From positions 960,428 to 1,024,427 of the forward strand of contig OY759351.1 of the NCBI GenBank assembly GCA_963662305.1: 64,000 nucleotides of DNA, in the 5' to 3' direction. Position numbers and translations under genes: made by a program. Position 1 is the first letter of the stretch. Each line of letters begins with the position of its first letter. The DNA is from Desulfarculia bacterium (GTDB taxonomy: Bacteria; Desulfobacterota; Desulfarculia; G963662305). Under the pieces are notes generated by a model that searched no databases, had not been told where the DNA came from, and saw only the letters and a list, made by a program, of their open reading frames with translations. Below are positions 11,879-62,074 of this stretch, piece by piece.

Positions 11879-11906
11879 GTCTTCTGCCGGATAACAGCCA
11901 GAACAA

Positions 11907-43029: not shown

Positions 43030-43406
43030 CCCTCCCCCCCTCCTTTTAAATTGGCCCCTACAATATTAACCGGTGAAAGATCGTTTATGGTTTAAAAAAC
43101 GAATTAATGGGTAATTGAATCGTAAGCGCATTTGATTATAAAGAAAATAAAAGGTGGAAAATCCGGAGGGGCGGCCGCCGGGACCACGACACTTCGCCGC
43201 CCGCCAGGAAGAGCGAGAACCTTGTGGAGCCTGAAGGGAAAACCGCCGGGCCAGGCCTGCGGAGTTAGGGTCTGGTTTCGGCCATGTTAGCGGATTGGCC
43301 GGTTCCCGCCGGACCGATTAGGGCTGGCCTACCGGCCGCAGAAATTGTAATATTTATTAAATCAAAATTGTTTTTTCCAAAGCGGATTAACCAAAGGAAG
43401 GTCCTT

Positions 43407-46010: not shown

Positions 46011-46458
46011 ATGCACTCTCCAGGAGCTCCTTGAACCGCCAGTATCAAAGAATGATATTACATGTGAGAACAACCAGTTAACCTTGTGCTTCACTTAGCC
46101 GGGCAGAAATGATTTCAAGGCAAGATCACTCTGTCGCTGGACCAAAATTCGGGGAGAGGTCAATTCCTTTGAATTTGCTGATCAGCATAAGATTTTATGC
46201 GTGTAAATCCTTTCATGATTTTCCTGTAAACCTGCCCAAGGAGAGCTCACTGCTAACATTGAAAATCAAGCGACGCCACTCAGCTCCCTCGTGAGCCTTT
46301 TAATCCCCCAAGGGGGGTTTAATTCCCTGCGGCTTGCCGCGAGTGCAACCACCGTTTTCTCCTGCCATACCCCGCTGCTTGCTGCGGGGTGGTTGCTTAA
46401 ATTCACTTTGCAAATTCCGGAATATGCTTGACCGCACCAACAGGACAGGTTATGCATA

Positions 46459-46498
46459 TTGGTAAGACCGGTCGGATAATCTTACCGGTAAGATGAGG
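46459..46498. promoter_or_regulatory. GntR/FadR-type operator-like bipartite palindrome upstream of dctP
   Basis: TTGGTAAGACCGGT-cggataat-CTTACCGGTAAGA. Near-identical to the motif at 49997-50034. A TTGACC -35-like hexamer lies 17 nt upstream. Confidence 0.5.
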
Positions 46499-46542
46499 AA
46501 GGCCGCCTGACATACCAAATGAATGAAAAGGGAGGACAAGGG

Positions 46543-47589
46543 ATGTACCGATTAGCAGGGATTAAGAGCATCTTTTTAGTAGCGGCTTTGATTTTTTCAG
46601 TTACTGTGTCGGCAGTATGTTCAGCGGATTCCGGCAAGGTGGAATTAAGCGTTTCCTTTCCGGACAAGGCCAAGTCGGGATTCGGTGCAGACGTCTTCGG
46701 ACCTTGGGGTGAGGCTGTTAAATCCATTACCCAGGGTCGGGTGACCTATACTCTCTTCGGCTCTCAGTCTCTGAATAAGATACCGGATGCCTTTGAGGCC
46801 ACCGTCAGTGGCGTTGCCGATGTCAATCACCTCATAGAGCAGGCCATCCCGGGGCGCTTCCTTTTGGCCGATATCTTCACCCTGCCCGGTATTATTCCCA
46901 ACCAGGCGGTGGCCAATCAGGCCTACCGGGAACTCATGGAGATGTACCCGCAGTTCCTGGAGCAGTATAAAGGGGTCAAGGTTTTATGGGCCTCGGTCAA
47001 CATGCCGGCCGATCTTCATTCCAAGGTGCCCATTAAAAGCCTGAGCGATCTAAAAGGTAAGATCATCGGTTGCCAGAACGCCGCCTCGGCCAGCGCCCTT
47101 AAGGCGCTCGGGGCCAGCGCCAGCATCATCACCATCGCCGAGGCCTACTCATCCTTGGAGCGGGGCGTTATCGACGGCGCAGTGGTGGCCTGGGGGACCT
47201 ACTGGTCCTGGCGCCTGTTCGAGGTGACCAAACACCACACCCTGCTGCACATCGCCCCCGTCACCTCGGCCTACATCGCCAACGAGAAAAAATTGGCCAA
47301 GATTTCGCCGGCCGACCAGAACGCTATTCTTATGATGAGCAAGGAGTTGGGCCCGAACCTGACCGCCAGATGTAACGCCAACACCCGCTCCATGGTTTTA
47401 GCGCGTGAGGCGACAAAGGAAAAAGGGCACGAATTCTACGAATTGTCTATCGATGATAAGGCAAAGGCCACCGCTTCCTATAAGCCTATTTGGGACAAAT
47501 GGGTGGCTGAGGTCACCAAGGCAGGTTATCCGGGGCAAAAGATTCTGGACGATCTGCTAAGGTTGATAGAAAAATACAAAAATTCATAG
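46543..47589 (+). CDS. dctP: TRAP transporter substrate-binding protein (DctP family)
   Basis: Signal peptide; DctP-like motifs (AEAYSSLERGVIDG); GGGAGG ribosome-binding site before ATG 46543. Confidence 0.8.
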   Translation: MYRLAGIKSIFLVAALIFSVTVSAVCSADSGKVELSVSFPDKAKSGFGADVFGPWGEAVKSITQGRVTYTLFGSQSLNKIPDAFEATVSGVADVNHLIEQAIPGRFLLADIFTLPGIIPNQAVANQAYRELMEMYPQFLEQYKGVKVLWASVNMPADLHSKVPIKSLSDLKGKIIGCQNAASASALKALGASASIITIAEAYSSLERGVIDGAVVAWGTYWSWRLFEVTKHHTLLHIAPVTSAYIANEKKLAKISPADQNAILMMSKELGPNLTARCNANTRSMVLAREATKEKGHEFYELSIDDKAKATASYKPIWDKWVAEVTKAGYPGQKILDDLLRLIEKYKNS

Positions 47590-47757
47590 GAGTACTGAAC
47601 AGCCGGGCGTTGCGGGGCCCTGTGAAGGTTCGGCAGGCCCTGCTGTTCAGGAAATTGACAAACAGTCGGAGGCGGCCGGGCTCTGCTGGGAGCGCTTTGA
47701 AAGCGACAACGGCCCGGAGGGAAACACAAGCCGTTCGTGGAAAAATAATTTTTGAAG

Positions 47758-47797
47758 CAGGCGAAAAATCCGCCTCCGGCTCAGCCTTTTTATTTTA
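47758..47797 (+). terminator. possible intrinsic terminator after dctP (GC dyads followed by a T-tract)
   Basis: caggcg-aaaaatc-cgcctcc, then ggctcagcc followed by tttttatttt. Confidence 0.35.
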
Positions 47798-47804
47798 GAT
47801 AGAG

Positions 47805-49925
47805 GTGCGCGAGTTGGCCGTTGTCTCAACAAACTCAAACCCCGGGGTTTTACGAATGGGACGAAGTGAGATGATCGAACGGTCATTCCTGCCCGCCGTC
47901 GAATTTGAATTCGCCGTCCTGGCTGATACCCACTACATGCAGGACCCGGGTTCCGAGCAGGTTGAATTCCAGTCCCGCCGTCTCCAGACGGCGAGAATCG
48001 AGAGGGTGTTGGGGCTGGTTGAATCCCTGGAAGTCGATTTTGTGGTTCACCTCGGGGATCTGACCCAAAATTACCCCGAGGCCGAAGGCTATCATGATTC
48101 GCTCGACCAGGCCCTGGGGCAACTCAAGAAACGCAACCTGAATTGGCGGTTCGTGGCCGGTAATCACGATGTGGGGGACAAGCCCGATCCGACCATGCCC
48201 ACAGAGTGGGTCTCTGAAGAAAGGCTCTCCCATTATCACCGCGTTGTCGGCCCTTCGTGGTATAGCTGGGACCGGAATCGCCGCCATTTCGTGGTCTTAA
48301 ATTCACAGATACTGAATTCCGCCCTGCCCCAGGCCGCCGCCCAGAATCAGTGGCTGGAAGAAGATCTGGCGGCCCACCGGGGCAGGCCGGTTTTCATGTT
48401 CATGCATCTGCCGCTTTATCTGGAAAACGAGGCCGAACCGGATTTGGGGCATTATGACAATATCGGTCAGCCGGCCCGCCGGAGATTGCTTAGTTTGATC
48501 CGTGAGTACGGGGTAAAGCTGGTTTTCGCCGGCCACAGCCACTACCCCTTTTTCGATAATATCGGAGCGACGAAATATTACGTGGCCGCTTCGCCTTCTT
48601 TCACCCGGCCGGGATTCGGGGAGATGTTTTCCAGTTGCCCTCCCCCGGAAAGGGGTCGCAATGATCAAGGCAAGCTGGGATTTTATCTGGTCCGGGTCGG
48701 CGGCGACAACATCGAGGTCCACTTTATCAGAACCGGAGGGGAGACCGCAGCCCTGGGAAGCGAACCGGATTATAAGAAGATCGTTCCCTGCCTTTCCTCG
48801 GAATATCCCGATTCGCCGATGGGGCTGACGCTTCGGCATCCCCTGTCCTGGAGAAGCGAGGTCCCGATCGCCTTTCCCTCGACCATCCGCCAGAAAGTTC
48901 GTAATGATTGCCAGATGTTGGCTATCACCGAACTGGGCTGCAGGCACCTCCGGGTTCCGGCGGCCGATTTTCAAGATGAGTTTCAACGGCAGAGGTTGAC
49001 CATCTTAAGGAACCAGGGTGTCGGCCTGACCGCTTTTTGGTTGTGGTCCGAGGGACTTGATTTGGTTTCAGCGATCCTGCCCTTCAGGGATCTTCTGGAC
49101 GGGATGGAGATTCAATTGGTCGGTCTCACCAAGCCGGGGCCGGAGTGTCTGGACCTGATGGCAGCCCTGGTCTCTCAATCAGGTCTGGAAACGACCCTTT
49201 CAACCCTGATTCCGAACGAGCGTGTCCGGGGCAAACAGCATGATCGTCCCAGATTCGGATTTCTGCCAGGCGAGTTGCCGGAATTGATTCACCATCTGAG
49301 CAAAAACCGGCCTGGTCCGGGACGGATCACAGCCCGCCTTGAACCCGGAATCGAACCTTGGGAGACCGTTGTTCGAGGCCGGTGGGCATCCCGTCCGGAC
49401 CGCCCCTTTGCGATCGACTGGCTGGTGGAAATGCAGACCACGGACGAGTCGGAGCAGACGGCCCTGGCGGCCGAAGCCCTGTTCGCCGGGGCCGCCTTGG
49501 GCGACTCCCGCATCTTCCTGGAACCCGTAATCGACCTTGACCGGACAATGGACGCCGCCTTCGGGCTGCTCGACCGGTTGGACAATCCCCGTCCCGCTTT
49601 CAGGGCCGTCAGTTGTCTGAACACCATACTTTTCAATAGCGGCGGAAAGTACAGTCCGAGAGAGCCTTTTCAGTTTGACGGGGTTCGGGTGCTGGGCCTT
49701 GACGGAAAAGGGGAAACGCTTCTCCTGCTCCTGCCCGACCGGTCAAACCGGGACGGGGTGGAAGTGGATATCCAGGGGCTCGAATCCCTGGCGGGAATCT
49801 CGGGGACAGACGAATACTATGATCTGGGAAAAGGGGCGGGGATGAAGCCGGGATTCGGCGAAGACCGCGATTCACAATCCTTGTTGCGGCCCACAGGTCC
49901 GATCCTGCTCGTGGTCCGGTACTGA
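47805..49925 (+). CDS. calcineurin-like metallophosphoesterase with an ~450-aa uncharacterised C-terminal region
   Basis: The N-terminal ~250 aa carry the metallophosphoesterase motifs LADTHY, GDLTQNY, GNHD and GHSHY. The C-terminal two thirds match no family I recognise. The start is GTG 47805 or ATG 47871. Confidence 0.65.
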   Translation: MRELAVVSTNSNPGVLRMGRSEMIERSFLPAVEFEFAVLADTHYMQDPGSEQVEFQSRRLQTARIERVLGLVESLEVDFVVHLGDLTQNYPEAEGYHDSLDQALGQLKKRNLNWRFVAGNHDVGDKPDPTMPTEWVSEERLSHYHRVVGPSWYSWDRNRRHFVVLNSQILNSALPQAAAQNQWLEEDLAAHRGRPVFMFMHLPLYLENEAEPDLGHYDNIGQPARRRLLSLIREYGVKLVFAGHSHYPFFDNIGATKYYVAASPSFTRPGFGEMFSSCPPPERGRNDQGKLGFYLVRVGGDNIEVHFIRTGGETAALGSEPDYKKIVPCLSSEYPDSPMGLTLRHPLSWRSEVPIAFPSTIRQKVRNDCQMLAITELGCRHLRVPAADFQDEFQRQRLTILRNQGVGLTAFWLWSEGLDLVSAILPFRDLLDGMEIQLVGLTKPGPECLDLMAALVSQSGLETTLSTLIPNERVRGKQHDRPRFGFLPGELPELIHHLSKNRPGPGRITARLEPGIEPWETVVRGRWASRPDRPFAIDWLVEMQTTDESEQTALAAEALFAGAALGDSRIFLEPVIDLDRTMDAAFGLLDRLDNPRPAFRAVSCLNTILFNSGGKYSPREPFQFDGVRVLGLDGKGETLLLLLPDRSNRDGVEVDIQGLESLAGISGTDEYYDLGKGAGMKPGFGEDRDSQSLLRPTGPILLVVRY

Positions 49926-49969
49926 AGGCATGAAGCATGTTTCTCCCAAATGGCAACTCGAATTTATTC

Positions 49970-49998
49970 TTGACTATAAATGTGAGGGACATATAATT
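49970..49998 (+). promoter_or_regulatory. sigma70 promoter of the gntR operon (TTGACT, 17-nt spacer, TATAAT)
   Basis: TTGACT 49970-49975 and TATAAT 49993-49998. The operator motif begins inside the -10 box. Confidence 0.6.
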
Positions 49999-50034
49999 GG
50001 TAAGACCGGTAAGGATATCCTACCGGTAAGGAGA
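49997..50034. promoter_or_regulatory. GntR/FadR-type operator-like bipartite palindrome overlapping the -10 box and transcript start of the regulator gene
   Basis: TTGGTAAGACCGGT-aaggatat-CCTACCGGTAAGG; core TGGTnnnACC as in FadR-subfamily operators. Confidence 0.55.
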
Positions 50035-50041
50035 TGACGGT

Positions 50042-50773
50042 ATGGCCTTTGAAAAAATAGCCCCTGGAACATTTCAGAACAGAAGCTCTCTCATCGCCAA
50101 GATCATTGTGGAAAAAATCCAAGCCGGCGAATACAAGGTCGGTTCCAAGCTGCCGCCGGAAAGAGTGCTCGCCGAGCAGATGGGGGTCGGACGGCCGGCC
50201 ATCAGGGAGGCCATCTGCGCCCTACAAATCGTGGACATAGTGGAGAGCAGGCCGGGCGACGGCACCTACGTCCAGAACACCGAATGGGCCAACCCGAGTA
50301 CGTTGCAGCGGGAAAGTTCCGCCCTTTCGCTGCTGGAGGAGGGCGACAACCCCTTTGAGGCCCTGGAGGCCAGGCGGACCGTGGAAGCAGATACCGTGAG
50401 GCGTGCTTCTGAAAGAAGGGATCAGCAGGATCTTGAAAAAATCAAATTGACTCTTGACCGGATCGTTGCCGCCGTCCGCGATAAGGAGATAGACGATCTG
50501 CTCGAAGCCGATTGCGAATTTCACGAAGCTATCGCTGTCGCGGCCAAAAATACGCTTCTGGAAAGAATCCTCAAGTCCCTCATGAAAGTGATGGAGCAGG
50601 AACTCTGGACCAAGATCAAGAAACAGTTTCTGGCAAGCAATTCCAAGGATCATTTGTCGGAGACCGTTAAGTCTCACGAAGAGATTTTTGAGGCCATAAA
50701 AAACCAAGACGGGCAAAGAGCGGCCAAGATCATGGAACGGCATTTTGACGAAATAGAACGTTTGTTCGATTAG
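50042..50773 (+). CDS. GntR-family (FadR-subfamily, FCD domain) transcriptional regulator
   Basis: The N-terminal winged helix-turn-helix is KLPPERVLAEQMGVGRPAIREAICALQIVDIV. An FCD-like helical domain forms the C-terminus. The AGGAG ribosome-binding site is 7 nt before ATG. Confidence 0.85.
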   Translation: MAFEKIAPGTFQNRSSLIAKIIVEKIQAGEYKVGSKLPPERVLAEQMGVGRPAIREAICALQIVDIVESRPGDGTYVQNTEWANPSTLQRESSALSLLEEGDNPFEALEARRTVEADTVRRASERRDQQDLEKIKLTLDRIVAAVRDKEIDDLLEADCEFHEAIAVAAKNTLLERILKSLMKVMEQELWTKIKKQFLASNSKDHLSETVKSHEEIFEAIKNQDGQRAAKIMERHFDEIERLFD

Positions 50774-50791
50774 GAACAGATTGGAGAATAG

Positions 50792-51262
50792 ATGTCTGTT
50801 GAAGATAAGCTGAAAGAGATGGGGCTCCAGCTCGATTTGGACCGGGAGGTCAAGGCGCCTGTTATTAACAAAGCAACCAGATCGGGAAATTTAATTTTCG
50901 TTTCCGGACACGGACCGCTCGGCCCTGATGGGAAGATGGCTTTTTCGGGCCGGGTCAGCGCAGAGCTTAGCCTGGAGGAAGGGTACCAGGCGGCCAGACT
51001 CTGCGCCCTCGATTGTCTGTCTTCGGTAAAGGCCATGGTCGGGTCTCTGGATGAAATCGAGGAAATCGTCTCGGTCAGGGGCTATGTAAGCAGCTCCCTT
51101 GATTTTTTTGATCAACCCAAGGTTTTAAACGGCGCCTCGGAATTCCTTATCGCCCTATTGGGGGACCGTGGCCGCCACACCCGGACAGCCATCGGCACCT
51201 CCGCCCTGCCCGGCAACATTCCGGTTGAGGTAGACATGATCGTCAGGGTTGGGTCCGCTTAG
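50792..51262 (+). CDS. Rid (YjgF/YER057c) family protein
   Basis: Chorismate-mutase-like Rid fold signature (...DQPKVLNGASE...RTAIG...P); about 156 aa. Confidence 0.8.
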   Translation: MSVEDKLKEMGLQLDLDREVKAPVINKATRSGNLIFVSGHGPLGPDGKMAFSGRVSAELSLEEGYQAARLCALDCLSSVKAMVGSLDEIEEIVSVRGYVSSSLDFFDQPKVLNGASEFLIALLGDRGRHTRTAIGTSALPGNIPVEVDMIVRVGSA

Positions 51263-51308
51263 GATCTGAAAACCGCTTTCCGCCGCACCGGCATAAAGGA
51301 GCGCTCCA

Positions 51309-51782
51309 GTGGGAGAAGCTGAGAAAAAAATAAGGGAGTTGGGGCTGGTTCTGGCCCCCAGGACGGAGATTCGGACGCCGGTCTACGAAAAAGCCAAGCG
51401 GGTCGGCGATCAGGCTTTTGTGGCCGCTCACGGTCCGCAGGACTCCCAGGGCCGGGTGGCATTCACCGGCCGTCTGGGAATCGACCTCACCATTGATGAA
51501 GGCTACGAGGCGGCAAGACTTTGTGCTCTTGACTGCCTGGCCTCTCTGAAGGTTTTGCTGGGTACGCTCGACAAAATTTCCCAGGTCGTCATGGTCAGGG
51601 GTTTTGTCAACAGTGCCGATGGTTTTTTTGACCAGCCCAAGGTAATGAACGGCGCTTCTGAGGTTCTCATTGATATTTTCGGTGACCGGGGCAGGCATTC
51701 CAGGACAGCCATAGGCGTGCCCGTTTTACCCAGAAACCTGGCCGTTGTTGTTGATATGCAGGTCGATTTGGTTTCCGACTGA
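51309..51782 (+). CDS. Rid-family protein, tandem paralog
   Basis: About 50% identical to the upstream Rid gene (CALDCL, FFDQPKV.NGASE, GDRGRH.RTAIG shared). Confidence 0.8.
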   Translation: MGEAEKKIRELGLVLAPRTEIRTPVYEKAKRVGDQAFVAAHGPQDSQGRVAFTGRLGIDLTIDEGYEAARLCALDCLASLKVLLGTLDKISQVVMVRGFVNSADGFFDQPKVMNGASEVLIDIFGDRGRHSRTAIGVPVLPRNLAVVVDMQVDLVSD

Positions 51783-51840
51783 TCCATATCCGACCTGGCC
51801 CAGGTTTCGACAGCCTCTCGTTCACTCTTCGGAGGAAAAC

Positions 51841-53139
51841 ATGAAAAACGACAAATCGACGGCATTGCTCAACGAATATGACCGCATCGTTCCGGGAGGA
51901 GTGCACTCAAATTTCCGTCGGCCGGTCTATTTCAAGAAGGTCCAGGGAGCCTATCTCTGGGATGTTGACGGCAACGAATATCTTGATTGCGTGATCAACA
52001 ACGGCGCCTGCATTTTGGGACATGGCGACCCGCAAGTCGCTGCGGCAGTGACAGAAACGATGAGCAACGGCCTCACCGTCGGGCTGGAGTCCGAACTCAG
52101 CCTGGAGGTGGCCAAACAGCTTCACGAGATGATCCCCTCGGCCGAACAGGTCCGGCTGGCGAATACCGGCACCGAGGCGGTGATGAAGGCCCTGATGGTC
52201 GCCCGGGCCTTCACCGGAAGGGAAAAGATAATAAAGGTGGAGGGATGTTATCACGGCTGGTTTGACGAGGCCCAGGTGAGCGTCCATCCGGATCCGCAGG
52301 AGTCCGGTCCGGCCGATGCCCCGATCCCGGTTCTTGAGACTTCGGGTATCAGACATAACACAACCGAATCGGTACTGGTCGTTCCCTTTAACAACCCGGA
52401 GTCGCTTGAGCGGACCCTGGAGGCCAACAAGGACCAGGTTGCGGCCATGATAATCGAGCCGGTGGTGCTCAACAGCGGCTGCATTATGCCTCAGCCGGGA
52501 TATTTGGCCGAGGTCAGGCGGCTGACCGAAAAATACGGCGTGCTTCTGGTCTTCGACGAGGTGATTACCGGTTTCAGGCTGGCTCCCGGAGGGGCCCAGG
52601 AACTCTTCGGGGCGGTTCCGGACCTCAGTACCTTTGCCAAGGCCATTGCCAACGGGTACTCCCTGGCAGCCTTAGCCGGCCGCAAGGATCTGATGGAGTT
52701 GACCCGGCCGGGCCGGCGTCTGACCTATGGCGGGACCTACAACGGGCAGTATTCGGCCCTGGCTGCGGCGTCGGTCTGCCTCCGGAAACTGAAGGACGGA
52801 ACGGTCCAGAAACACCTCGATACAATAGGCCGGACCCTTTGCCGAAGGTTTGAAAGGGAGGCGGCTGAGGTGGGAGTAAAAGCCCGCATATACCAATGCG
52901 GCGGCGAGTTCCAGATCTATTTCACAGACCGGGAGATCAAGGACTACCGCGACGCCTGCTCCGCCGACCAGGACAGCTACCGGATCTTTTTCGAGACCGT
53001 CAGCGACAAGGGGCTTTGGATGAGCGCGGGGTACTTGTTCCACCACGGCCTGACCTACGCTCACGGCGAGGCCGAATTGGACAAGATCATAACCGCCTTC
53101 AGGGCCGGTCTGGAGGCGGTGAGGGCCTTTCAGGGCTGA
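51841..53139 (+). CDS. class III PLP-dependent aminotransferase (glutamate-1-semialdehyde aminomutase-like)
   Basis: GGVHSNFR, YLWDVDGNEYLD, NTGTEAV and FDEVITGFR motifs. ATG 51841 directly after GGAGGAAAAC. Confidence 0.8.
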   Translation: MKNDKSTALLNEYDRIVPGGVHSNFRRPVYFKKVQGAYLWDVDGNEYLDCVINNGACILGHGDPQVAAAVTETMSNGLTVGLESELSLEVAKQLHEMIPSAEQVRLANTGTEAVMKALMVARAFTGREKIIKVEGCYHGWFDEAQVSVHPDPQESGPADAPIPVLETSGIRHNTTESVLVVPFNNPESLERTLEANKDQVAAMIIEPVVLNSGCIMPQPGYLAEVRRLTEKYGVLLVFDEVITGFRLAPGGAQELFGAVPDLSTFAKAIANGYSLAALAGRKDLMELTRPGRRLTYGGTYNGQYSALAAASVCLRKLKDGTVQKHLDTIGRTLCRRFEREAAEVGVKARIYQCGGEFQIYFTDREIKDYRDACSADQDSYRIFFETVSDKGLWMSAGYLFHHGLTYAHGEAELDKIITAFRAGLEAVRAFQG

Positions 53140-53200
53140 TCGCTGAAAAACTGGTCACCTGTGGGAGCTAGAATTTCTTTTTGGATACGGAGGCAAACTA

Positions 53201-54433
53201 ATGGCAGCCAATACACAACGCCCCTGGATCAGTGAGAGGGCCTTCATCAGCCCCTGGACATACGAGGCCAATCAATCACTTAGTCTGCCCGGGCAGGTGA
53301 CGATCTACGACGTCACCCTGAGAGACGGTGAACAATACCCCGGGTTGGTTTTTACCAAGGAAGACAAGATTCGCCTGGCCGAGGCCCTCGACGATCTGGG
53401 CATAAGCCGCCTGGAGGCCGGGATGCCGGCTGTCTCAAAGGACGATTTCGAGGCTGTTTGCGAGATCGTTAAAAGAATTAAGTCCGATGTGGTGGTCTTC
53501 TGCCGGGGATTGGAAAGCGATGTGGATCTGGCCGTGGAGGCCGGGGCGTGGGGGGTGATAGTGGAGCTCCCCTCCAACCAGACTCTCATCGAAAAAGGAT
53601 ACCAGTGGACCCGGGAGGATGTGGTCGGCAAGGCCATCAAAACCTGTAACTACGCCAAAGGTAAAGGCCTCCATACCACTTTCTTCCTCATCGATTCCTC
53701 GGGCGCCGATCCGTCCTTTTTGAAGTCGATTATCGAAGAGGTCGTCCCCAGGACCGACATCGACTCCCTGACCGCGGTGGACACCTTCGGGCGGTTGAAC
53801 CCTATGGGAACGGCCGCCTTTGTCAAAAAAGTTCGAGAATGGAGCGGGGTTCCGGTGGAGATTCACGTCCACAACGATTTCGGGCTGGGGCTGGCCAACT
53901 CGCTGTCAGCCGTGGAGGCCGGGGCGGTTGCGGTCCACACCAATATGCTCGGACTGGGAGAGCGCTCGGGAGGAGTGCCCACGGAAGAGGCAGCTGCGGC
54001 CCTGGAATACATCTACGGCCTGGATACGGGTGTGGATCTGAAAAAGGTAAAGAAGACGGCCCAGGTATTCGAGTCCGTCTCCGGGGTGAAAATGACGGGC
54101 CACAAGCCGGTTGTCGGAGCAAACTCCTTTGCCTACGAGGCGGGAATAGCGGCCATGTTCTCCTATCGGCTTTTCAAGGATGATCTGCCTTTGAATGTGA
54201 TGCCCTACCGTCCCGATCTGGTGGGCGGTGAATTCCGGATAGACCTGGGCAAAAAAGCCGGGCAGTACAACGTGATGTGGCATCTGGACCGGCTCAGTCT
54301 GGCGGCCGACGAAGACCAGGTGCGCCGAATGGTCGATCTGATAAAGGCCAAATCAATGGAAAAACGCAGCGCCATCACTGAGAACGAATTCATCGACATC
54401 TATAAAACGGTTTGCCCCGGTGCTTCCATCTAA
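53201..54433 (+). CDS. DRE-TIM metallolyase (HMGL-like / pyruvate carboxyltransferase family) aldolase or synthase
   Basis: YDVTLRDGEQ motif near the N-terminus and HVHNDFGLGLAN metal site. Confidence 0.7.
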   Translation: MAANTQRPWISERAFISPWTYEANQSLSLPGQVTIYDVTLRDGEQYPGLVFTKEDKIRLAEALDDLGISRLEAGMPAVSKDDFEAVCEIVKRIKSDVVVFCRGLESDVDLAVEAGAWGVIVELPSNQTLIEKGYQWTREDVVGKAIKTCNYAKGKGLHTTFFLIDSSGADPSFLKSIIEEVVPRTDIDSLTAVDTFGRLNPMGTAAFVKKVREWSGVPVEIHVHNDFGLGLANSLSAVEAGAVAVHTNMLGLGERSGGVPTEEAAAALEYIYGLDTGVDLKKVKKTAQVFESVSGVKMTGHKPVVGANSFAYEAGIAAMFSYRLFKDDLPLNVMPYRPDLVGGEFRIDLGKKAGQYNVMWHLDRLSLAADEDQVRRMVDLIKAKSMEKRSAITENEFIDIYKTVCPGASI

Positions 54434-54566
54434 CCGGAGCTGTCGGCTCATCACTGCAGGGTGGGTTGTCCGTTTTCAGGATGATCAACTCTGCCAATCA
54501 AGCGCTTACGCGCCTTGGAGTTGATCGGGGTGACGATTATTTCTTCCCGATCAGGTCCATAGGGGA

Positions 54567-56465
54567 GTGATCAGGCCAATGAACCGGGAATTCAACGACA
54601 CCATAACCCGAATCGCCCTGTGGTACAGCAGATTGGGCGCGATCTGCCTTCTCGGAATCGTGCTTGTCATTTTGATAGACGTATTCCTGCGGCGGATGTT
54701 CCACATGACCTTTGTGGGCGCCCTGGAATCGGTGGAACTGATGCTGATCATGGTGATGTTCGCCGGCCAGGCCCACACCGAAATAAACGACCGTCACGTT
54801 CAGATAGACATCCTCACGGATAAGCTGTCTCCCCGTACTCAAGCGGTGCTGAGGGTCTTTGTCGGAGCCATGAGTCTGGGTATCACCTTCATCCTGGTCT
54901 GGCAGTCGTTCGTCATGGCCCACAACATGCAGTTGGCCGGAGACAGAACCGGAATGCTGGGGCTTCCCGTATATCCCATGATCTACCTCATGGCGGTGGG
55001 CCTTTCGCTTTTGTGTTTCGTCCTATTTATCGAGTACTACAGATATGTTCGAGAACTTTTAGCCCGGGGAAAAGGCTCCTGGGCCGTGGTCCTGATTTCG
55101 GTCGTTGCGGTCGCCGCTCTCTTTTTGGTGCCGTGGTGGGGCAGATCGCTCTGGCCGGACATCAGCCGCCAGTCGATCGGGATAATCTTTTTGAGCGGTC
55201 TTTTCCTTCTTCTGTTCTTAAGGATGCACATCGGACTGGCGATCGCCTTTTGCGGAGTCATCGGCATGTCCTTTCTGGTCAACTATACGGCCGGCTTCAG
55301 CCTGGCCGGAATCACCATCAAATCGGTGGCCTCGAGCTACACCTGGAGCGTTATCCCGCTGTTCGTCTTTATGGGCTATCTGGCCTCCAACACCGGCATG
55401 GCCCGGGAGATATACGAGACAGCCTACGCCTGGGTCGGGTATCAGCCGGGCGGTCTGGCCATCGCGACCATGGGGGCCTGCGGCGGTTTTGCCGCGGTCA
55501 CGGGCGACACCCTCTCCGGGGCGGTGACCATGGGTTCGATCTCCCTGCCGGAGATGAAACGCTACAACTACGATCCCAAACTGGCCACCGGAGCTGTTTG
55601 CGCCGGCGGGACCCTGGGGGTGCTGATCCCCCCCAGCATAGGCTTCATCATCTACGGACTGCTGACCGAGGAATCCATCGGGAAGCTTTTTATCGCCGGC
55701 ATAGTCCCCGGCATTCTGCTGGTTTTGCTCTTCGCCGCGACCATATCGATCATGGTCCGGCTGAACCCGGCCATGGGGCCCCGGGGCGAAAAGGTCGGCT
55801 TCAGGGAAAAGGTGATATCCCTGAGAAAAACATGGGGGGTTATTCTTTTATTCGTCGTCGTTATCGGGGGTATTTACGGCGGCGTTTTTACCGCCACCGA
55901 AGCCGGCGTGGTCGGCGCAGCAGGGGCGCTGGTCCTCGGGCTGATAAAAAGATCGCTTACCTGGGAAAGGTTCCTGGACGCCCTCAACCAGACCATCCAG
56001 ACGACCTCGATGGTCTTTCTGATATTCATCCCGGCCACGATCCTGAATCATTTTCTGGCCGCCACCAAACTGCCGATGATGATGGCCAATTTTCTGACCG
56101 AGATCCAGACCGCACCCATCGTGATAATCATCATCATAATGATTTTCTACATAATAATCGGGTGCGTCATGAACGTCCTGCCGGCCGTCATCCTGACTCT
56201 GCCGCTGATCTATCCCACCGTCAAGACGCTCGGTTTCGATCCTACCTGGTTCGGGGTGGTGATGATGATAATCATGGAGATGGGCCAGATCACACCGCCT
56301 ATCGGAATGAACGTCTTCGCCATCTCGGGTGTGGCCAAGTACGTACCCATGGGTGATATTTTTAAGGGCATCATGCCTTTTTGGCTCGCCATGACGGTTT
56401 TCGTGGCCCTGCTTCTGATATTCCCCCAGATAGCCACATTTTTGCCTGATTTGCTGATGAAATAA
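54567..56465 (+). CDS. dctQM: TRAP transporter fused small/large permease (DctQ-DctM)
   Basis: N-terminal four-transmembrane DctQ-like part, then a DctM large permease (...GGTLGVLIPPSIG...); about 17 transmembrane segments. Confidence 0.8.
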   Translation: MIRPMNREFNDTITRIALWYSRLGAICLLGIVLVILIDVFLRRMFHMTFVGALESVELMLIMVMFAGQAHTEINDRHVQIDILTDKLSPRTQAVLRVFVGAMSLGITFILVWQSFVMAHNMQLAGDRTGMLGLPVYPMIYLMAVGLSLLCFVLFIEYYRYVRELLARGKGSWAVVLISVVAVAALFLVPWWGRSLWPDISRQSIGIIFLSGLFLLLFLRMHIGLAIAFCGVIGMSFLVNYTAGFSLAGITIKSVASSYTWSVIPLFVFMGYLASNTGMAREIYETAYAWVGYQPGGLAIATMGACGGFAAVTGDTLSGAVTMGSISLPEMKRYNYDPKLATGAVCAGGTLGVLIPPSIGFIIYGLLTEESIGKLFIAGIVPGILLVLLFAATISIMVRLNPAMGPRGEKVGFREKVISLRKTWGVILLFVVVIGGIYGGVFTATEAGVVGAAGALVLGLIKRSLTWERFLDALNQTIQTTSMVFLIFIPATILNHFLAATKLPMMMANFLTEIQTAPIVIIIIIMIFYIIIGCVMNVLPAVILTLPLIYPTVKTLGFDPTWFGVVMMIIMEMGQITPPIGMNVFAISGVAKYVPMGDIFKGIMPFWLAMTVFVALLLIFPQIATFLPDLLMK

Positions 56466-56568
56466 GGCGAGTGGATTGAAATTGGCGGCGACCCCAAAAC
56501 ATCCGTCCGGTGATCGGAGGCCTGATCGGGTTCGGTCAGGGGAGACGGGATATTCAGAGGAGGAAACT

Positions 56569-57330
56569 ATGCTGTGGTCAGAGATGACCTCCCCTCAGGT
56601 AGAGAAGTGCGCCAAGGAGAATTATCTTGTCGTTCTGCCCTGCGGCTCCCTGGAGCAGCACGGGTGGCATCTCCCGGTGGACACGGACAGCGACATCATC
56701 ACCAACGTGGCCCGTCAGGCGGCGTCAAAGATAGAACGGACCGTGGTAATGCCGACCTTGTGGTGCGGCTTTTCGCCCCAGCACCAATCTGCGGCCGGGA
56801 CCGTATCCCTCTCTCTTTCGACCTACGCCTCCTTGATCCAGGAGATCATCGGCGCCGTGGCCGAACACGGTTTCAAGCGGATGGTGCTGCTCAACGGGCA
56901 CGGGGCCAACGAGGAGCCGCTTCGGGCTGTTGTCCGCGGGTTGGTCAAGGAATACCGGATCAGGCTGCTGGTGCTGACCTACTGGTATCTTATCGACCGG
57001 GCCGAGGTGGAAAAGATACGGGAGGGGGGACCGGGCAGCATGGGCCACGCCGGAGAGATGGAGACTTCGGTGGAGCTTTACCTGCGACCCGATCTGGTCC
57101 ACATGGATAAGGCGGTTTCAAACCCGATCCGGCCCAAACTGAAGCATCAGTGGGAGGATATGTTTGCTCCGGGGCCGGCCTTTATGGTCGATTCGCTTTA
57201 TCGTTCCTCGGGGCCCGTGGTCCGGGGAGACGCCACCTGCGGCAGCGCCGAAAAGGGTCGCAAATTCATGGACTGGTCCATCCAGAAGGTAGCCGAATAT
57301 TTACAGGGGTTCATGGAGTTGAACGACTGA
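56569..57330 (+). CDS. creatininase-family amidohydrolase
   Basis: LPCGSLEQHGWHLPVDTD...LNGHG...GHAGEMETS motifs; ATG 56569 after GGAGGAAAC. Confidence 0.75.
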   Translation: MLWSEMTSPQVEKCAKENYLVVLPCGSLEQHGWHLPVDTDSDIITNVARQAASKIERTVVMPTLWCGFSPQHQSAAGTVSLSLSTYASLIQEIIGAVAEHGFKRMVLLNGHGANEEPLRAVVRGLVKEYRIRLLVLTYWYLIDRAEVEKIREGGPGSMGHAGEMETSVELYLRPDLVHMDKAVSNPIRPKLKHQWEDMFAPGPAFMVDSLYRSSGPVVRGDATCGSAEKGRKFMDWSIQKVAEYLQGFMELND

Positions 57331-57389
57331 GAAGCTGGCTTCCATGTCCCTGACTGAAATGAAAGATGTTTCTTAAGGGAGAGTTTTCG

Positions 57390-58265
57390 ATGAGCGACGT
57401 GAAATGCGTTTTCGAGGCCAAGGCCACGACGGCCGAGTGTCCTGTCTGGAATATAGAGGGGAAAGCCCTTTATTGGATCGACATACAGGGGAAAACCCTC
57501 AACCGTTTTGACCCTGCATCGGGTCGGAACAGGGTCTGGCCCGTGGGCGAGGATATCGGATCCTTTGCTTTCCGGGAAACCGGGGGTGTGGTGGCGGCCA
57601 TGCGTTCCGGGTTCGCCCATATCGACCTGAACGGCGGCGGGGTTGACTACCTGGTCGATCCCGAGGCCGAGATCGAGACCAATATTTTCAACGACGGCAA
57701 ATGCGACCGGGCCGGGAGGTTCTGGGCCGGAACCATGTATGAACCCCAGCCCCGCAACCAGCCGGTCGCCGGCCTGTATAGACTCGATCCCGACCTGAGC
57801 TGGCATAAGATGGAGGAGGGGATCGGGACCTCCAACTGTCTGGCCTGGAGCCCGGACAACCGGACCATGTATTTCGGCGACTCCCGGCGCAAAACCGTCT
57901 GGACCTACGATTTTGATTTCGAGACGGGAAGCCTGAGCAACCGCCGGGTGTTTCTCGAACTGGGAGAGCTGGGGCGTCCGGACGGCGCCGCGGTCGACGA
58001 GGAAGGTGGCTACTGGCTGGCCGTTTTCGATTCCAGCCGGGTTTTCCGGTTCACCCCGGACGGCAAGGTCAGCCAAGAGATCAGTCTTCCGGTAACCCAG
58101 CCCACCATGGTCGCTTTCGGCGGCGATGACTTGAGCACGCTCTATATAACCTCGGCCAGAATAGGCTTAAGCGAGGAGCAGCTCGTCCGGGAACCTCTGG
58201 CCGGCGGAATTTTCGCCGTTAAGGTCGAGTTCAAGGGATTGCCCGAACCGAAGTTTAAGGGTTAG
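57390..58265 (+). CDS. SMP-30/gluconolactonase/LRE-like lactonase (six-bladed beta-propeller)
   Basis: ECPVWN...LYWIDI...FNDGKCD...PDG motifs characteristic of the regucalcin family. Confidence 0.75.
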   Translation: MSDVKCVFEAKATTAECPVWNIEGKALYWIDIQGKTLNRFDPASGRNRVWPVGEDIGSFAFRETGGVVAAMRSGFAHIDLNGGGVDYLVDPEAEIETNIFNDGKCDRAGRFWAGTMYEPQPRNQPVAGLYRLDPDLSWHKMEEGIGTSNCLAWSPDNRTMYFGDSRRKTVWTYDFDFETGSLSNRRVFLELGELGRPDGAAVDEEGGYWLAVFDSSRVFRFTPDGKVSQEISLPVTQPTMVAFGGDDLSTLYITSARIGLSEEQLVREPLAGGIFAVKVEFKGLPEPKFKG

Positions 58266-58309
58266 CGCACTGCAGGTTCCTGAAAACATTATAATCGATA
58301 GGAGAGGGC

Positions 58310-60418
58310 ATGAATTCAGCGGGCGAGCCGGTTGAGGCCGCATTGTCCAGGGCCGCAGGTCAACTGTCCGAGTATCAATCCAAACGGCTTTTGGCCGAGT
58401 ACGGCATCCCGGTTGTGGATGAGATTCTAGCCGAGAAGCGGGAAGACGTCCTACAGGCGGCCGTTGACCTGGGTTGGCCGGTGGTGCTCAAGTACTGTTC
58501 CTCCCAACTGACCCACAAGACCGAACAGGGACTGATCGCTCTGAATCTGAACAATCCGGAGGAACTAAAGGAGGCCTTTGAGCGGCTCTCCTCCCTGGCG
58601 GCTGAGACCGGATTGGAGGGGGCGTTCCTGGTTCAGCGGTTCATCAGGGGCGATCGGGAGCTGGTCGCAGGTTTGATCCGCGATCCCCTTTTCGGCCCCT
58701 GCATCATGTTCGGCCTGGGCGGGATTATGACCGAAGCCTTGGGCGATGTGACCTTCCGGGTCGCCCCGTTTTCCCGGGCCCAGGCCGAGCAGCTCCTCCA
58801 GGAACTAAGGTCGGCCAAGATCCTGGGCGAGTTTCGGGGACAGCCGGCCGTCGATCGGGAAATTCTGATAGAGACTTTAATGGGGCTCGGCCGGATCGGC
58901 CTGGATCACCCGGAGATCAAAGAGTTGGACATCAACCCCTTGGTCATCCGGGAAGGACGGCCCGTGGCTGTGGATGCCCTGGTGATCCTGGACCGGGAGG
59001 TCCCCAAAGAGGCTGACCGGGGGGTCAGGACAGAGGGCCTGGGGGCCCTGTTCGAACCCCGCTCGGTGGCCGTTATCGGGGCCACGGCCAAGGAGGGCAA
59101 GGCCGGAAACGACGTAATCAAAAACATTCTGGCCAACGGATATAGGGGCGACCTCCATCTGGTCAACCCCAAGGGAGGCCGAATCATGGGCCGCCGGGTG
59201 GCGGCCTCCATCGAGGACCTTCCGGACGGAATCGACCAGGCCATCATCATCCTTCCGGCCCAGGCCAATCCGGACGCCATCCGAGCCTGCGCCGCCAAGG
59301 GGATCAAGGCCGTGGTTCTGGCGGCGGGTGGATTTGCGGAGGTCGACGAAAACGGCTCCTCCCTCCAGGAGGAGCTGGCCAGGGCGGTGACCGAGACCGG
59401 CATTCGGGCCTTGGGCCCCAACACTTCGGGCCATACCTCCACCCCCCACAACTTCACCTCCAGCTTTTTCCCCCTGGGCAGGCTGCCCAAAGGGCCCATA
59501 AGCTATATCGCCCAGACGGGTAATTTCGCCACTCATACCATGCGCTCCATTATGTCCACCGAATACTACGGGGTGGCCCGGGTGATCGGGCTGGGCAACA
59601 AGATCGATTTTGACGAGACGGACGCCCTGGCCTACCTGGCCCAGGACCGGGAGACCAAGGCCATCTTCTGCTATCTGGAAAGCCTGGCCCGGCCTCGTCT
59701 GTTTCTCGAAACAGCGGCCGAAGTAACCAAAAAGAAGCCGGTGGTGATGCTCAAGGGAGGCAGTTCGGAGGACGGCGCCCGGGCTGCGGTGGCCCACACG
59801 GCGGCCCTGGCCTCTGACCGGAGGATAATGGACGCGGCCTTACGGCAGGTCGGGATTGTCCAGATCCACGAATACTCCCACCTGATTCTGGCGGCCAAGG
59901 CTCTGGTGCGGATGCCCCCCCCCAGGGGCAACCGGGTCGCTTTTCTGGCCCCTTCAGGGGCCATGCTGGTGGCTCTGACCGATCTTTGCCGGCTGAAACT
60001 GGGCTTAACCGTGCCCCGGGTGGAGGAGCGGACCAGAGCCCGGTTGCAGGAGATCAGCCCCTCTTATATCCGGATGCGCAATCCGGTCGATATCTGGCCG
60101 GCCGCCGCCGTCAGCGGGGTGGAGTTCGCCTATCGGGAAGGGATGAAGGCTGTGCTGGAGGACCCGAACATCGACGCCGTGGTTCCGGTCTTGATGATGA
60201 CCGACGAAACAGGGGTACCGGATTTGACCTTTATTCTCGATTTGGCCGATACGCACCCGGACAAGCCCATTTACATCACCTTTTCCGGAGAGAAAAAGCA
60301 CATGGATGCGGCCCGGGATTTTCTTGAACCGCATGGGGTGCCTACCTACCCCCTCATTGAGCAGCCATTTGAGGTTCTCAGCATTCTGGCCCGCTGCCGC
60401 GGGGCCATGGAGAGGTAA
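58310..60418 (+). CDS. ADP-forming acyl-CoA synthetase, fused beta (ATP-grasp) then alpha (CoA-binding / ligase-CoA) domains
   Basis: The N-terminal ATP-grasp region runs LSEYQSKRLLAEYGIPVV...VVLK. Next comes the CoA-binding motif RSVAVIGATAKEGKAGN. A succinyl-CoA-ligase-like alpha domain follows. Confidence 0.8.
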   Translation: MNSAGEPVEAALSRAAGQLSEYQSKRLLAEYGIPVVDEILAEKREDVLQAAVDLGWPVVLKYCSSQLTHKTEQGLIALNLNNPEELKEAFERLSSLAAETGLEGAFLVQRFIRGDRELVAGLIRDPLFGPCIMFGLGGIMTEALGDVTFRVAPFSRAQAEQLLQELRSAKILGEFRGQPAVDREILIETLMGLGRIGLDHPEIKELDINPLVIREGRPVAVDALVILDREVPKEADRGVRTEGLGALFEPRSVAVIGATAKEGKAGNDVIKNILANGYRGDLHLVNPKGGRIMGRRVAASIEDLPDGIDQAIIILPAQANPDAIRACAAKGIKAVVLAAGGFAEVDENGSSLQEELARAVTETGIRALGPNTSGHTSTPHNFTSSFFPLGRLPKGPISYIAQTGNFATHTMRSIMSTEYYGVARVIGLGNKIDFDETDALAYLAQDRETKAIFCYLESLARPRLFLETAAEVTKKKPVVMLKGGSSEDGARAAVAHTAALASDRRIMDAALRQVGIVQIHEYSHLILAAKALVRMPPPRGNRVAFLAPSGAMLVALTDLCRLKLGLTVPRVEERTRARLQEISPSYIRMRNPVDIWPAAAVSGVEFAYREGMKAVLEDPNIDAVVPVLMMTDETGVPDLTFILDLADTHPDKPIYITFSGEKKHMDAARDFLEPHGVPTYPLIEQPFEVLSILARCRGAMER

Positions 60419-61670: not shown

Positions 61671-62074
61671 GTTCTGGCAGTATTGCTGAATCCGGTAAAC
61701 ATAGGTTCCCAGCTGCGGCCAATCTCGACAAGGGTGTTGCTCGAAAAATCAAAGGCGGCTTCGCTATACATGGTGTCGTGGTACAGGATGCCGAGTACCG
61801 ACTCTTGAATCCTCAACGGGAGGTACAAAATGGCCTTGGGCAGATGGCCCGGAGCATTATCGACAGTGGATGATTGTTTAACTTTTATGGGCTGATGATT
61901 CCTGTAGGCCTTCAGCACGTAAACCATGCTCTCCCGGAATGACTCCCCATTCACTTCATAGGGCCTGTCAAGGGCGGAGTAAAAATGTACCAGTGGGGCG
62001 GAGTAAAAGTGTACCGGTTTTGAAGTTGATCATCAGGGGGCCTTAAGGCCGCCTGATGAGGATAGAGGCGTGCA

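Follow-up and report, generated by a model that had tools for sequence, protein, structure and literature searches.

How does a bacterium make use of a gene cluster in which every enzyme belongs to a known family and none scores as a characterised enzyme? This question is raised by a locus of eleven genes in a Desulfarculia bacterium (assembly GCA_963662305.1, contig OY759351.1), which was analysed within a stretch of 64,000 nucleotides, referred to here as the window. The cluster is a new combination of known families around a widespread, apparently uncharacterised LeuA-like family, and it very probably represents a regulated catabolic regulon for a nitrogen-containing acid.

All eleven genes lie on the + strand. 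The listing of open reading frames (ORFs) and the Pfam scans gave the families as first noted, well above the gathering cut-offs: DctP, Metallophos, GntR with FCD, two YjgF_endoribonc (Rid) proteins, Aminotran_3, HMGL-like, DctQ with DctM, Creatininase, SGL, and ATP-grasp_5 with CoA_binding and Succ_CoA_lig. This gene content supports the first-pass annotation, which had described a one-strand catabolic cluster headed by a GntR regulator and equipped with a tripartite ATP-independent periplasmic (TRAP) importer. The profile searches against Pfam and NCBIfam that it had proposed as a check upheld the families, and every enzyme fell below the NCBIfam equivalog cut-offs of the characterised families; the family names are therefore safe, while the specific functions are not. 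It had also recognised no characterised pathway, which agrees with these scores and with the lack of a match to ectoine, creatinine, hydroxyproline or uronate catabolism. The defining enzymes of these four pathways and of sialic-acid catabolism are absent from the cluster, and no member of the DoeA/DoeB/EutBC or creatinase/sarcosine oxidase families was present among the eleven genes. The literature searches turned up neither this cluster nor a diketo-acid lyase that depends on CoA.

The gene starts were refined by means of the genes called on L172, a contig of 105 kb from this organism, and by exact-sequence look-ups, which placed dctP at 46543, the phosphoesterase gene mpe at 47871, the class III pyridoxal phosphate (PLP) enzyme gene AT3 at 51841, dctQM at 54579, the creatininase-like gene at 56569 and the lactonase gene SGL at 57390. 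The intergenic gaps between gntR and acd, the gene of the ADP-forming acyl-CoA synthetase (ACD), then measure 18, 46, 58, 61, 145, 103, 59 and 44 nt. The close spacing described earlier thus holds, with its upper value corrected from 133 to 145 nt, and the stretch from gntR to acd (10,377 nt) corresponds to the 10.4-kb operon that had been proposed. All eleven ORFs are uninterrupted in the window.

The LeuA-like family and its genomic partners

The gene at 53201..54433 (+ strand; Pfam HMGL-like) encodes a DRE-TIM protein that resembles LeuA and homocitrate synthase. Its best NCBIfam model was NF002085 (299.7 bits, cut-off 517), and NifV gave 269.5 bits (cut-off 462.9). In the PDB it matches 6ktq with 30% identity, an entry that Foldseek also found (1e-30) for the AlphaFold2 model (pLDDT 86.9). 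By sequence and by predicted structure, the protein is nearest to homocitrate, isopropylmalate and methylthioalkylmalate synthases, not to DmpG-type aldolases or HMG-CoA lyase. The earlier designation as a DRE-TIM aldolase was therefore abandoned, as sequence, profile and predicted structure all give a protein like LeuA and homocitrate synthase. An identity as DmpG/BphI 4-hydroxy-2-oxovalerate aldolase was rejected: TIGR03217 gave 74 bits against a cut-off of 286, and no DmpF-like gene is present in the window.

The residues of the active site were mapped on the Brassica methylthioalkylmalate synthase BjMAMS (6E1J), in which Glu227, the general base His388 and Tyr399 are each essential by mutagenesis (PMC11532901). 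The residues R41, D42, Q45, T195, H222 and H224 of the LeuA-like protein correspond to Arg89, Asp90, Gln93, Thr257, His288 and His290 of BjMAMS, while I164 stands for Glu227, A317 for His388, L331 for Tyr399 and Y312 for His383. Thus, the metal and 2-oxoacid motifs of a LeuA-type Claisen synthase are present, and its enolising residues and a score above the curated cut-off are not. The alignment was then based on 152 homologues from genome and metagenome scans, 127 of which, with 36-77% identity to the window protein, make up the LeuA-like family. A single genome scan yielded relatives of at most 46% identity, except for one short contig at 62%.

Among the 127 family members, Glu is never found at the position of Glu227, nor His at that of His388; the 15 true synthases that these scans also returned all have His at the latter. 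Ile or Val replaces the Glu, Leu or Thr the Tyr, and Ala or Val the His. R41, D42, Q45, T195, H222 and H224 show little or no variation across the family, which was divided by identity to the window protein into clades A (at least 57%), B (43-49%) and C (36-42%), and Tyr312 is invariant in clades A and B. By these residues, the family retains the site for the metal and the 2-oxo acid, along with the Gln next to the thiol of CoA, and would be unable to enolise acetyl-CoA in the canonical way. Because the acetyl-CoA-enolising residues are lost, neither an aldolase nor a synthase can be assumed. The LeuA-type Claisen synthases, i.e., the isopropylmalate, homocitrate, citramalate and methylthioalkylmalate synthases (IPMS, HCS, CMS, MAMS), share with the family the TIM barrel with a post-barrel subdomain, the RDGEQ, DTxG and HxH motifs and the Gln by the CoA thiol; unlike them, the LeuA-like protein has neither the Glu-Tyr-His set nor a regulatory domain, and it sits in a catabolic setting.

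The genomic neighbourhoods were compared by calling ORFs around 143 loci of the family, clustering the neighbours and annotating representatives. An ACD gene lies within 2.5 kb of the LeuA-like gene in 13 of the 14 distinct informative loci of clade A, in 8 of 9 of clade B and in 8 of 97 of clade C. These partner ACDs form one group with 43-84% mutual identity, in tiers that mirror the divergence of the LeuA-like proteins, and the partner in L001 scores 800 bits on the 3-hydroxypropionate-CoA ligase model against 548 on acetate-CoA ligase. The ACD of the window itself (58310..60418, + strand) is a fused protein with the ATP-grasp domain first (Pfam ATP-grasp_5, CoA_binding_2 and Succ_CoA_lig). 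By its domains it is an NDP-forming acyl-CoA synthetase, and it stays below the substrate-specific equivalogs, with 478 bits on the Archaeoglobus acetate-CoA ligase model (cut-off 1200) and 408 bits on 3-hydroxypropionate-CoA ligase (cut-off 1300); its PDB matches are 9y43 (5e-102) and 8wzu. It is closer to the ACD of L092 (49% identity) than to the usual partner ACDs, and orthology with the partner lineage was not found.

In five Terriglobia loci (L056, L075, L078, L079 and L081, from Terriglobia/Bryobacteraceae metagenome-assembled genomes, at about 10001-13500), the LeuA-like gene is followed by a PTA_PTB gene, and the trio with Pta and AckA is complete in L056 and L075, where the AckA of L075 scores 404 bits (cut-off 293). 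The genes upstream of this unit are unrelated housekeeping genes in all four loci that were annotated (L056, L075, L078 and L081), and for this reason a phosphoketolase unit was rejected as the source of Pta and AckA. Since the unit stands free amid unrelated genes, it suggests that the Terriglobia proteins handle a common metabolite and some small acyl-CoA. That one enzyme is accompanied by two unlike systems for making ATP from acyl-CoA argues, from genomic context, that an acyl-CoA is the product or the substrate of the LeuA-like family. The first-pass annotation had assigned ATP conservation to the ACD; the linkage of the family to ACD and to Pta-AckA elsewhere speaks for this part, and the position of the window ACD outside the usual partner lineage speaks against it.

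Further neighbours of the family are GlcD-like FAD oxidases with or without GlcF-like Fe-S proteins or ETF (22 loci), D-2-hydroxyacid dehydrogenases (19), SDRs (17), aldehyde:ferredoxin oxidoreductases, AFOR (11, in four of them directly adjacent), class V aminotransferases (9), M24 peptidases (9) and FAH-family proteins (7). Moreover, sugar-acid dehydratases (UxuA, MR_MLE, IlvD/EDD) occur in several clade-A loci. ETF, GlcD-like oxidase, AFOR, SDR, Pta and AckA have no homologues within the window.

Regulation, relatives and upper-pathway proteins

A 45-nt direct repeat (family D4) lies at 46458-46502 upstream of dctP and at 49996-50040 upstream of gntR, both copies on the + strand. Each copy contains the palindrome ACCGGT-N11-ACCGGT (family I7) and is positioned immediately 3' of a -10 hexamer. 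The first copy, with the core TTGGTAAGACCGGT-N10-TACCGGTAAG, stands 3' of a promoter-like site of dctP (TTGACC-17-TATGCA, 46428-46456, + strand; hexamers read by eye). The second overlaps the promoter of the gntR operon (TTGACT-16-TATAAT, 49970-49997, + strand), which with 11 of 12 matches is the best sigma-70-like site in 17 kb. The 14-bp core TTGGTAAGACCGGT occurs at exactly two sites in the 64-kb window, where 0.29 matches are expected by chance even with two mismatches permitted. The site is of the GT-N3-AC type, to which FadR/FCD-type GntR proteins bind, and the gene at 50042..50773 (+ strand) encodes a GntR/FCD-family regulator whose nearest NCBIfam models (LldR, NanR and PdhR) all score below the cut-off.

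As the exact operator core follows both promoters, the simplest reading of the sequence is one regulon with two promoters, for dctP-mpe and for gntR-acd, and the GntR/FCD protein probably represses both, its own operon included. The earlier inclusion of dctP and the phosphoesterase gene in the cluster is justified because the operator is common to both promoters and the phosphoesterase gene is syntenic in the relative L166 described below. The sole hairpin inside the operon (54444-54468, 3' of the HMGL-like gene) is weak and terminator-like, and no riboswitch or other Rfam element was found in the 44.9-62.6 kb region. In the orthologous gntR promoter region of L166 (2380-2420), the palindrome TTGTCTGGACAA stands in place of TTGGTAAGACCGGT, although the two regulators are 81% identical.

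L166 is a 9.6-kb contig that carries the best orthologue of the creatininase-like protein (77% identity). Neighbourhood mining, which had been suggested as a check on the cluster, recovered in it the gene order of the window, tandem Rid pair included: mpe-gntR-rid-rid-AT3-(leuA-like)-dctQM-creatininase-like-SGL, with 59-83% amino acid identity to the window. The dN/dS values between the window and L166 range from 0.06 to 0.18 for seven orthologue pairs (dS is saturated). This synteny, together with purifying selection, leads to the conclusion that the cluster is a unit maintained in at least two lineages. However, the LeuA-like gene of L166 (5592-6455) is a pseudogene, with deletions of 20, 160 and 317 nt and several indels of 1-4 nt, while its neighbours are intact. 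L166 was the only syntenic relative found; the shared order was met in uncultured material only, and no named, cultured organism showed it.

Other clade-A loci carry analogous gene sets made of partly non-homologous parts. L001 and L002 combine an Opp-type ABC transporter, AFOR, a creatininase-like protein, MlrC, AT3 (63-64% identity), a class V aminotransferase, the LeuA-like protein, ACD, ETF and an FAD oxidase. In L090, SBP_bac_5, MR_MLE, a creatininase-like protein, Amidohydro_2, Rid and a class V aminotransferase accompany the LeuA-like protein, ACD, ETF and an FAD oxidase. Besides the LeuA-like gene, L150 carries UxuA, MlrC and AT3, L094 has the order DctP-DctQ-DctM-LeuA-like, and L005 contains MR_MLE, a PLP enzyme of the D-cysteine desulfhydrase family, an amidohydrolase, Rid and ACD. 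The window differs from these loci in its TRAP transporter, its SMP-30 lactonase and an ACD of another lineage at the operon end, and in having no ETF, oxidase, AFOR or SDR.

The TRAP transporter is complete, with DctP, DctQ and DctM all present and both NCBIfam models above their cut-offs. The solute-binding protein DctP (46543..47589, + strand, 348 aa; the ORF opens at 46519 and the length follows the L172 gene call) matches Pfam DctP at 2.9e-34 and TRAP_S1 with 96 bits (cut-off 50). The membrane components DctQ and DctM are fused in one protein (54579..56465, + strand; Pfam DctQ and DctM), which scores 337 bits on TIGR00786 (cut-off 268) and is 83% identical to its L166 counterpart.

The two Rid proteins (50792..51262 and 51309..51782, both + strand; Pfam YjgF_endoribonc) are paralogues with 52-56% identity. 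Their best PDB matches are 3d01 and the Rid1 proteins PA0814 and ACIAD3089 (E-values 8e-26 and 2e-28), and their motifs RHTRTA and RHSRTA align with RHARAA of PA0814 and 3d01, with the arginine of RHxRxA retained. An arginine equivalent to RidA Arg105 is the criterion of the Rid1 subfamily (PMC4433059, PMC5619798), to which both copies belong by this residue and by closest similarity. Rid1 proteins PA0814 and ACIAD3089 deaminate imines in vitro (PMC5619798), and Rid genes cluster with PLP enzymes that release enamines (PMC4433059).

The class III PLP enzyme AT3 (51841..53139, + strand; Pfam Aminotran_3 4.6e-63, PDB 6w80 at 8e-82) is closest to glutamate-1-semialdehyde 2,1-aminomutase, with 358 bits on TIGR00713 (cut-off 527) and 369 bits on NF000818 (cut-off 398). 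It also gives 359 bits on the model of the guanitoxin transaminase GntE. The family assignment as class III aminotransferase stands, and with the aminomutase as nearest kin transamination remains putative. HemL proper was rejected because the scores lie below the equivalog cut-offs and the context is catabolic, not that of tetrapyrrole synthesis. AT3 orthologues with 60-73% identity stand beside the LeuA-like gene in L001, L002, L088, L150 and L166.

The metal amidohydrolase of the creatininase family (56569..57330, + strand; Pfam Creatininase 2.2e-61) scores only 133 bits on TIGR04448 (cut-off 235), and MftE and IolN were likewise below the cut-off. The name creatininase thus holds for the Pfam family and not for the enzyme; creatininase proper (EC 3.5.2.10) was excluded by this score and by the lack of creatinase and sarcosine oxidase genes among the eleven. 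The protein has few orthologues (10 clusters with at least 45% identity). In L167 (10001-12297), homologues with 45% identity stand in tandem beside a Prok-JAB protein, with a radical-SAM gene about 2.7 kb upstream on the opposite strand, a context unlike that of the window. The SMP-30/gluconolactonase-family lactonase SGL (57390..58265, + strand; the ORF opens at 57366) matches Pfam SGL at 3.4e-86, and in the PDB regucalcin 4gn7 (5e-53) and the xylonolactonase-type 7plb (1e-49).

The product of mpe (47871..49925, + strand) is a protein of 684 aa with two domains. Pfam Metallophos covers only residues 36-248, and the C-terminal part of about 400 aa had no Pfam match even at E = 1. Structure prediction with Foldseek, another check that had been suggested, revealed a GH39-like barrel in this protein as well as the LeuA-type fold in the supposed aldolase. 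In the AlphaFold2 model (pLDDT 85.9, pTM 0.90), the N-terminal domain resembles GpdQ, Rv0805 and purple acid phosphatases, and Foldseek matched the TIM barrel/beta-sandwich part to GH39 5jvk (2e-12) and to PslG (5bx9/4zn2). The resemblance of the predicted C-terminal fold to GH39 glycoside hydrolases is clear. The description of a long metallophosphoesterase was thus right for the N-terminal domain, and the GH39-like domain had been missed. The family consists of proteins of about 680 aa (769 matches at E <= 1e-10) whose C-terminal half is strongly conserved, with invariant residues that are mainly Arg, Asp and Lys, plus one invariant Glu; the syntenic L166 protein is 59% identical. A homologue in L168 occurs with GlcD/GlcF-like genes, MlrC, a GFO/IDH/MocA oxidoreductase and an Opp-type ABC transporter, and one in L170 with an M19 peptidase, a DAO-family oxidase, Rid, a PALP enzyme and an RraA-like protein. 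Fold and context of the family hint at a carbohydrate-like, anionic substrate.

Borders and origin of the island

At the left border, a degraded IS4-family transposase remnant (45216..46095, + strand) was detected as three tblastn pieces in different frames, with a partial DDE_Tnp_1 match. Its main piece has 82% amino acid identity to residues 104-332 of the intact IS4-family transposase at 12532-13764 (- strand; DDE_Tnp_1 and DUF4372), and by this match the remnant is a frameshifted copy of that element. The intact transposase itself lies in a patch of about 0.50 GC (11-15 kb) amid housekeeping genes. At the right border are a sigma-54 activator without a sensor domain (60528-61670, - strand; AAA+ and HTH_8 domains) and the N-terminally truncated IstB of an IS21 element (62075-62509, - strand; Pfam scan). 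The ORF upstream of the activator (region 60528-61954, - strand) bears only a faint GAF-like match (E about 0.1), and for this reason the activator gene may be split or truncated.

Window positions 1-41 kb hold housekeeping genes, read from the translations as cysS, uvrB, murA, rpsB, pyrH, uppS, dxr and rseP. The GC content of the island genes is 0.58 against 0.65 in ten housekeeping genes of the window, and at third codon positions (GC3) 0.72 (range 0.62-0.78) against 0.84. The housekeeping context and the degraded insertion sequence (IS) elements on both flanks were thus described correctly at first, and horizontal acquisition of the island, also proposed there, agrees with the remnants of IS elements and with the lower GC3. 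A gene for an adenylate/guanylate cyclase domain followed by TPR repeats lies at 43284-44918, between the housekeeping genes and the island. The region downstream, partly past the 3' end of the window, was seen in L172 (14064-19910), where it contains part of a DctM gene and a sulfatase gene broken into two ORFs, so that several genes of this neighbourhood are decayed. The ACD of the L172 long-read assembly is split as well (404 and 292 aa); as the gene is intact in the window and in the NCBI copy of the genome, an assembly error may be the cause.

Proposed reactions and alternatives

As a whole, the locus is best explained as a two-promoter regulon for the uptake and breakdown of a nitrogen-containing carboxylic acid, with thiolytic cleavage by the LeuA-like protein and ATP made by ACD; this complete reading is put forward tentatively, at somewhat less than an even chance. 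An amino-sugar-acid-type compound, for which lactone, lactam or phosphoester forms are possible, fits best as the substrate. Judging by the protein families, the TRAP system would import the carboxylate, and the SMP-30 lactonase, the creatininase-family amidohydrolase and the phosphoesterase/GH39-like protein would open or trim it. The aminomutase-like PLP enzyme would take off the amino group, and the imine or enamine set free in this way would be hydrolysed by the two Rid1 proteins, giving a 2-oxo acid. The LeuA-like protein may then hold the 2-oxo acid on its metal and break a C-C bond with release of the pyruvate enolate. In this step CoA would attack the 4-carbonyl, in a retro-Claisen cleavage of a 2,4-dioxo acid or a similar compound to an acyl-CoA, which the ADP-forming synthetase would turn into an acid and ATP. 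Attack by CoA is proposed because the protein seems unable to enolise acetyl-CoA and yet is tied genomically to enzymes that lead from acyl-CoA to ATP. This specific step, in which pyruvate is released, CoA takes the other fragment and ACD makes ATP, is a real possibility but still rather unlikely.

Several observations weigh against thiolytic cleavage. The window holds no dehydrogenase or dehydratase for a 2,4-dioxo acid, which the PLP step would have to supply. Its ACD is 30-34% identical to the usual partner ACDs, is not adjacent to the LeuA-like gene and is closer to the acetate-CoA ligase model; in clade C, an ACD gene is nearby in just about 8% of the loci. As the LeuA-like gene has decayed in L166 beside intact genes, its step is a separable lower module, and the upper pathway would work without it. 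In L170, an RraA-like protein (aldolase/decarboxylase family) follows Rid and PALP at the place which the LeuA-like protein holds in L005, and this suggests a CoA-independent role. Moreover, the mapping of Tyr399 to L331, in the post-barrel region, hangs on a gapped alignment, and the neighbour counts rest on simple in-house ORF calling and single-linkage clustering.

With the same upper pathway, the LeuA-like protein may be a CoA-independent, metal-dependent lyase (a 4-hydroxy-2-oxoacid aldolase or an oxaloacetate-type decarboxylase) that yields pyruvate and an aldehyde or CO2, and ACD would merely convert acetyl-CoA from pyruvate:ferredoxin oxidoreductase into acetate and ATP. This explanation, unlikely but to be taken seriously, agrees with the retention of the 2-oxoacid/metal site and the loss of the acetyl-CoA-enolising residues, with the invariant Tyr312 of clades A and B (a Tyr also serves in aldolases of the DmpG/BphI type), with the AFOR genes in 11 loci, four of them directly adjacent, and with the sugar-acid dehydratases of several clade-A loci. 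The RraA-like protein in the equivalent place in L170, the resemblance of the window ACD to acetate-CoA ligase and the dispensability of the LeuA-like gene in L166 point the same way. However, the adjacency to a co-diverging ACD lineage across three clades and the self-contained Terriglobia unit with Pta and AckA would stay unexplained, the Gln beside the CoA thiol is retained, and the position of the RDGxH motif, whose His is used by DmpG-type aldolases, is a Gln in the LeuA-like protein. A condensing role is improbable: here the protein would join a 2-oxo acid (e.g., glyoxylate from glycolate, glycine or sugar-acid fragments) to acetyl-CoA and release a malyl-CoA-type ester, and ACD or Pta-AckA would take ATP from the CoA ester or supply acetyl-CoA. 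Glycolate-fermenting syntrophs are reported to make ATP through malyl-CoA, the nearest kin of the protein are Claisen synthases, and GlcD/GlcF-like glycolate-oxidase genes, AGXT-type class V aminotransferases and the acyl-CoA/ATP enzymes are linked to the family. Nevertheless, the partner ACD is like monocarboxylic hydroxyacid ligases and not dicarboxylate ligases, malic enzyme and fumarase are not among the frequent neighbours, the general-base His and its support by Glu and Tyr give way to hydrophobic residues in 127 of 127 members, and the equivalent mutations abolish BjMAMS activity (PMC11532901).

Still less probable is a CoA-dependent, glyoxalase-I-like isomerase that would turn a 2-oxoaldehyde, formed by amine-to-aldehyde transaminases, and CoA into a D-2-hydroxyacyl-CoA, from which ACD or Pta-AckA would yield ATP and D-specific dehydrogenases would reoxidise the D-2-hydroxy acid. 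It would account for the D-specific 2-hydroxyacid dehydrogenases and oxidases near the LeuA-like genes and for the hydroxyacid-type partner ACD, and it suits the aminomutase-like AT3, the PhnW/pyridoxamine-type class V transaminases and a free-standing trio whose substrate would be a ubiquitous metabolite, e.g., methylglyoxal. On the other side, the protein retains the Thr and the Arg for binding the carboxylate of a 2-oxo acid, methylglyoxal synthase was not seen among the neighbours, and the idea is purely chemical reasoning with no precedent. That the island is a decaying horizontal import whose pathway no longer works in this host is slightly less probable again. IS remnants, the truncated regulator and other gene fragments around the island, the decay of the LeuA-like gene in L166 and the split ACD in L172 would be in keeping with decay; the eleven intact ORFs, the dN/dS of 0.06-0.18 for seven orthologue pairs, the intact promoter-operator pairs and the possible assembly error behind the split gene, whose NCBI copy is intact, are not. 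A biosynthetic cluster, in which the LeuA-like and GntE/HemL-like enzymes would elongate 2-oxoacid chains or make an amino compound, is very improbable: although AT3 reaches 359 bits on the GntE model and the relatives of LeuA are biosynthetic, the synthase residues are gone and the cluster lacks the isomerase and dehydrogenase that accompany chain elongation. The TRAP importer with its solute-binding protein, the GntR/FCD repressor layout, the hydrolases and ACD, and the richness of related loci in importers and peptidases also speak against it.

Oxidised amino-sugar pathways, such as those of D-glucosaminate and GlcNAc1A, offer one comparison, as a lactonase, an amide hydrolase and PLP-dependent deamination with Rid would suit an amino-sugar acid. 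GntR/FCD-regulated TRAP operons for sugar acids and sialic acid, of the NanR/SiaPQM and Uxu/Exu type, have the same regulator class, importer and operator-after-promoter layout, but NanA, KdgK, KDPG aldolase, DgaE and OngBC, which define these systems and the amino-sugar pathways, are absent here, and the regulator scores below every equivalog cut-off. The module for peptide and amino acid fermentation of anaerobic archaea and bacteria shares the aminotransferase, ACD, often AFOR, peptidases and Opp-type importers with the LeuA-like loci; it has a 2-oxoacid oxidoreductase, whereas most of these loci have none and the LeuA-like protein would stand between the 2-oxo acid and the acyl-CoA. In DmpG/DmpF (BphI/BphJ), a DRE-TIM lyase likewise yields pyruvate and the second fragment ends as acyl-CoA, but the partner is an acylating aldehyde dehydrogenase instead of ACD or Pta-AckA, and the similarity is weak (E 1e-12 to 1e-15). 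The substrate type proposed for the LeuA-like protein is that of the non-phosphorylative deoxy-sugar and pentonate routes with a 2,4-diketo-3-deoxy acid hydrolase, and genes for SDR, FAH-family, GlcD/GlcF-like and sugar-acid dehydratase proteins are repeatedly found near those of the family. In these routes, the L-2-keto-3-deoxyfuconate (L-KDF) 4-dehydrogenase and then the diketo hydrolase lead to pyruvate and lactate or glycolate (PMC11199699). Unlike the thiolytic counterpart with ACD proposed here, they are hydrolytic and conserve no energy, and they have the 4-dehydrogenase and the dehydratase that the window does not.

That the LeuA-like family is a new class of CoA-dependent C-C lyases, which would store the energy from cleavage of 2,4-dioxo-type acids in an acyl-CoA and form a so far unrecognised module of substrate-level phosphorylation with ACD or Pta-AckA, is a conjecture that we regard as unlikely. 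If true, the module would be spread in uncultured Desulfobacterota, Chloroflexota, Acidobacteriota, Bathyarchaeia and others, with the window as its TRAP-fed version for an amino-sugar-acid-like compound, and a large family now annotated as isopropylmalate or homocitrate synthase would be misnamed. Many energy-limited anaerobes would then gain extra ATP at a step which aerobes merely hydrolyse. DctP, the defined operator and the phosphoesterase/GH39-like family offer direct routes to the substrate, for which uncultured sediment bacteria evidently compete.

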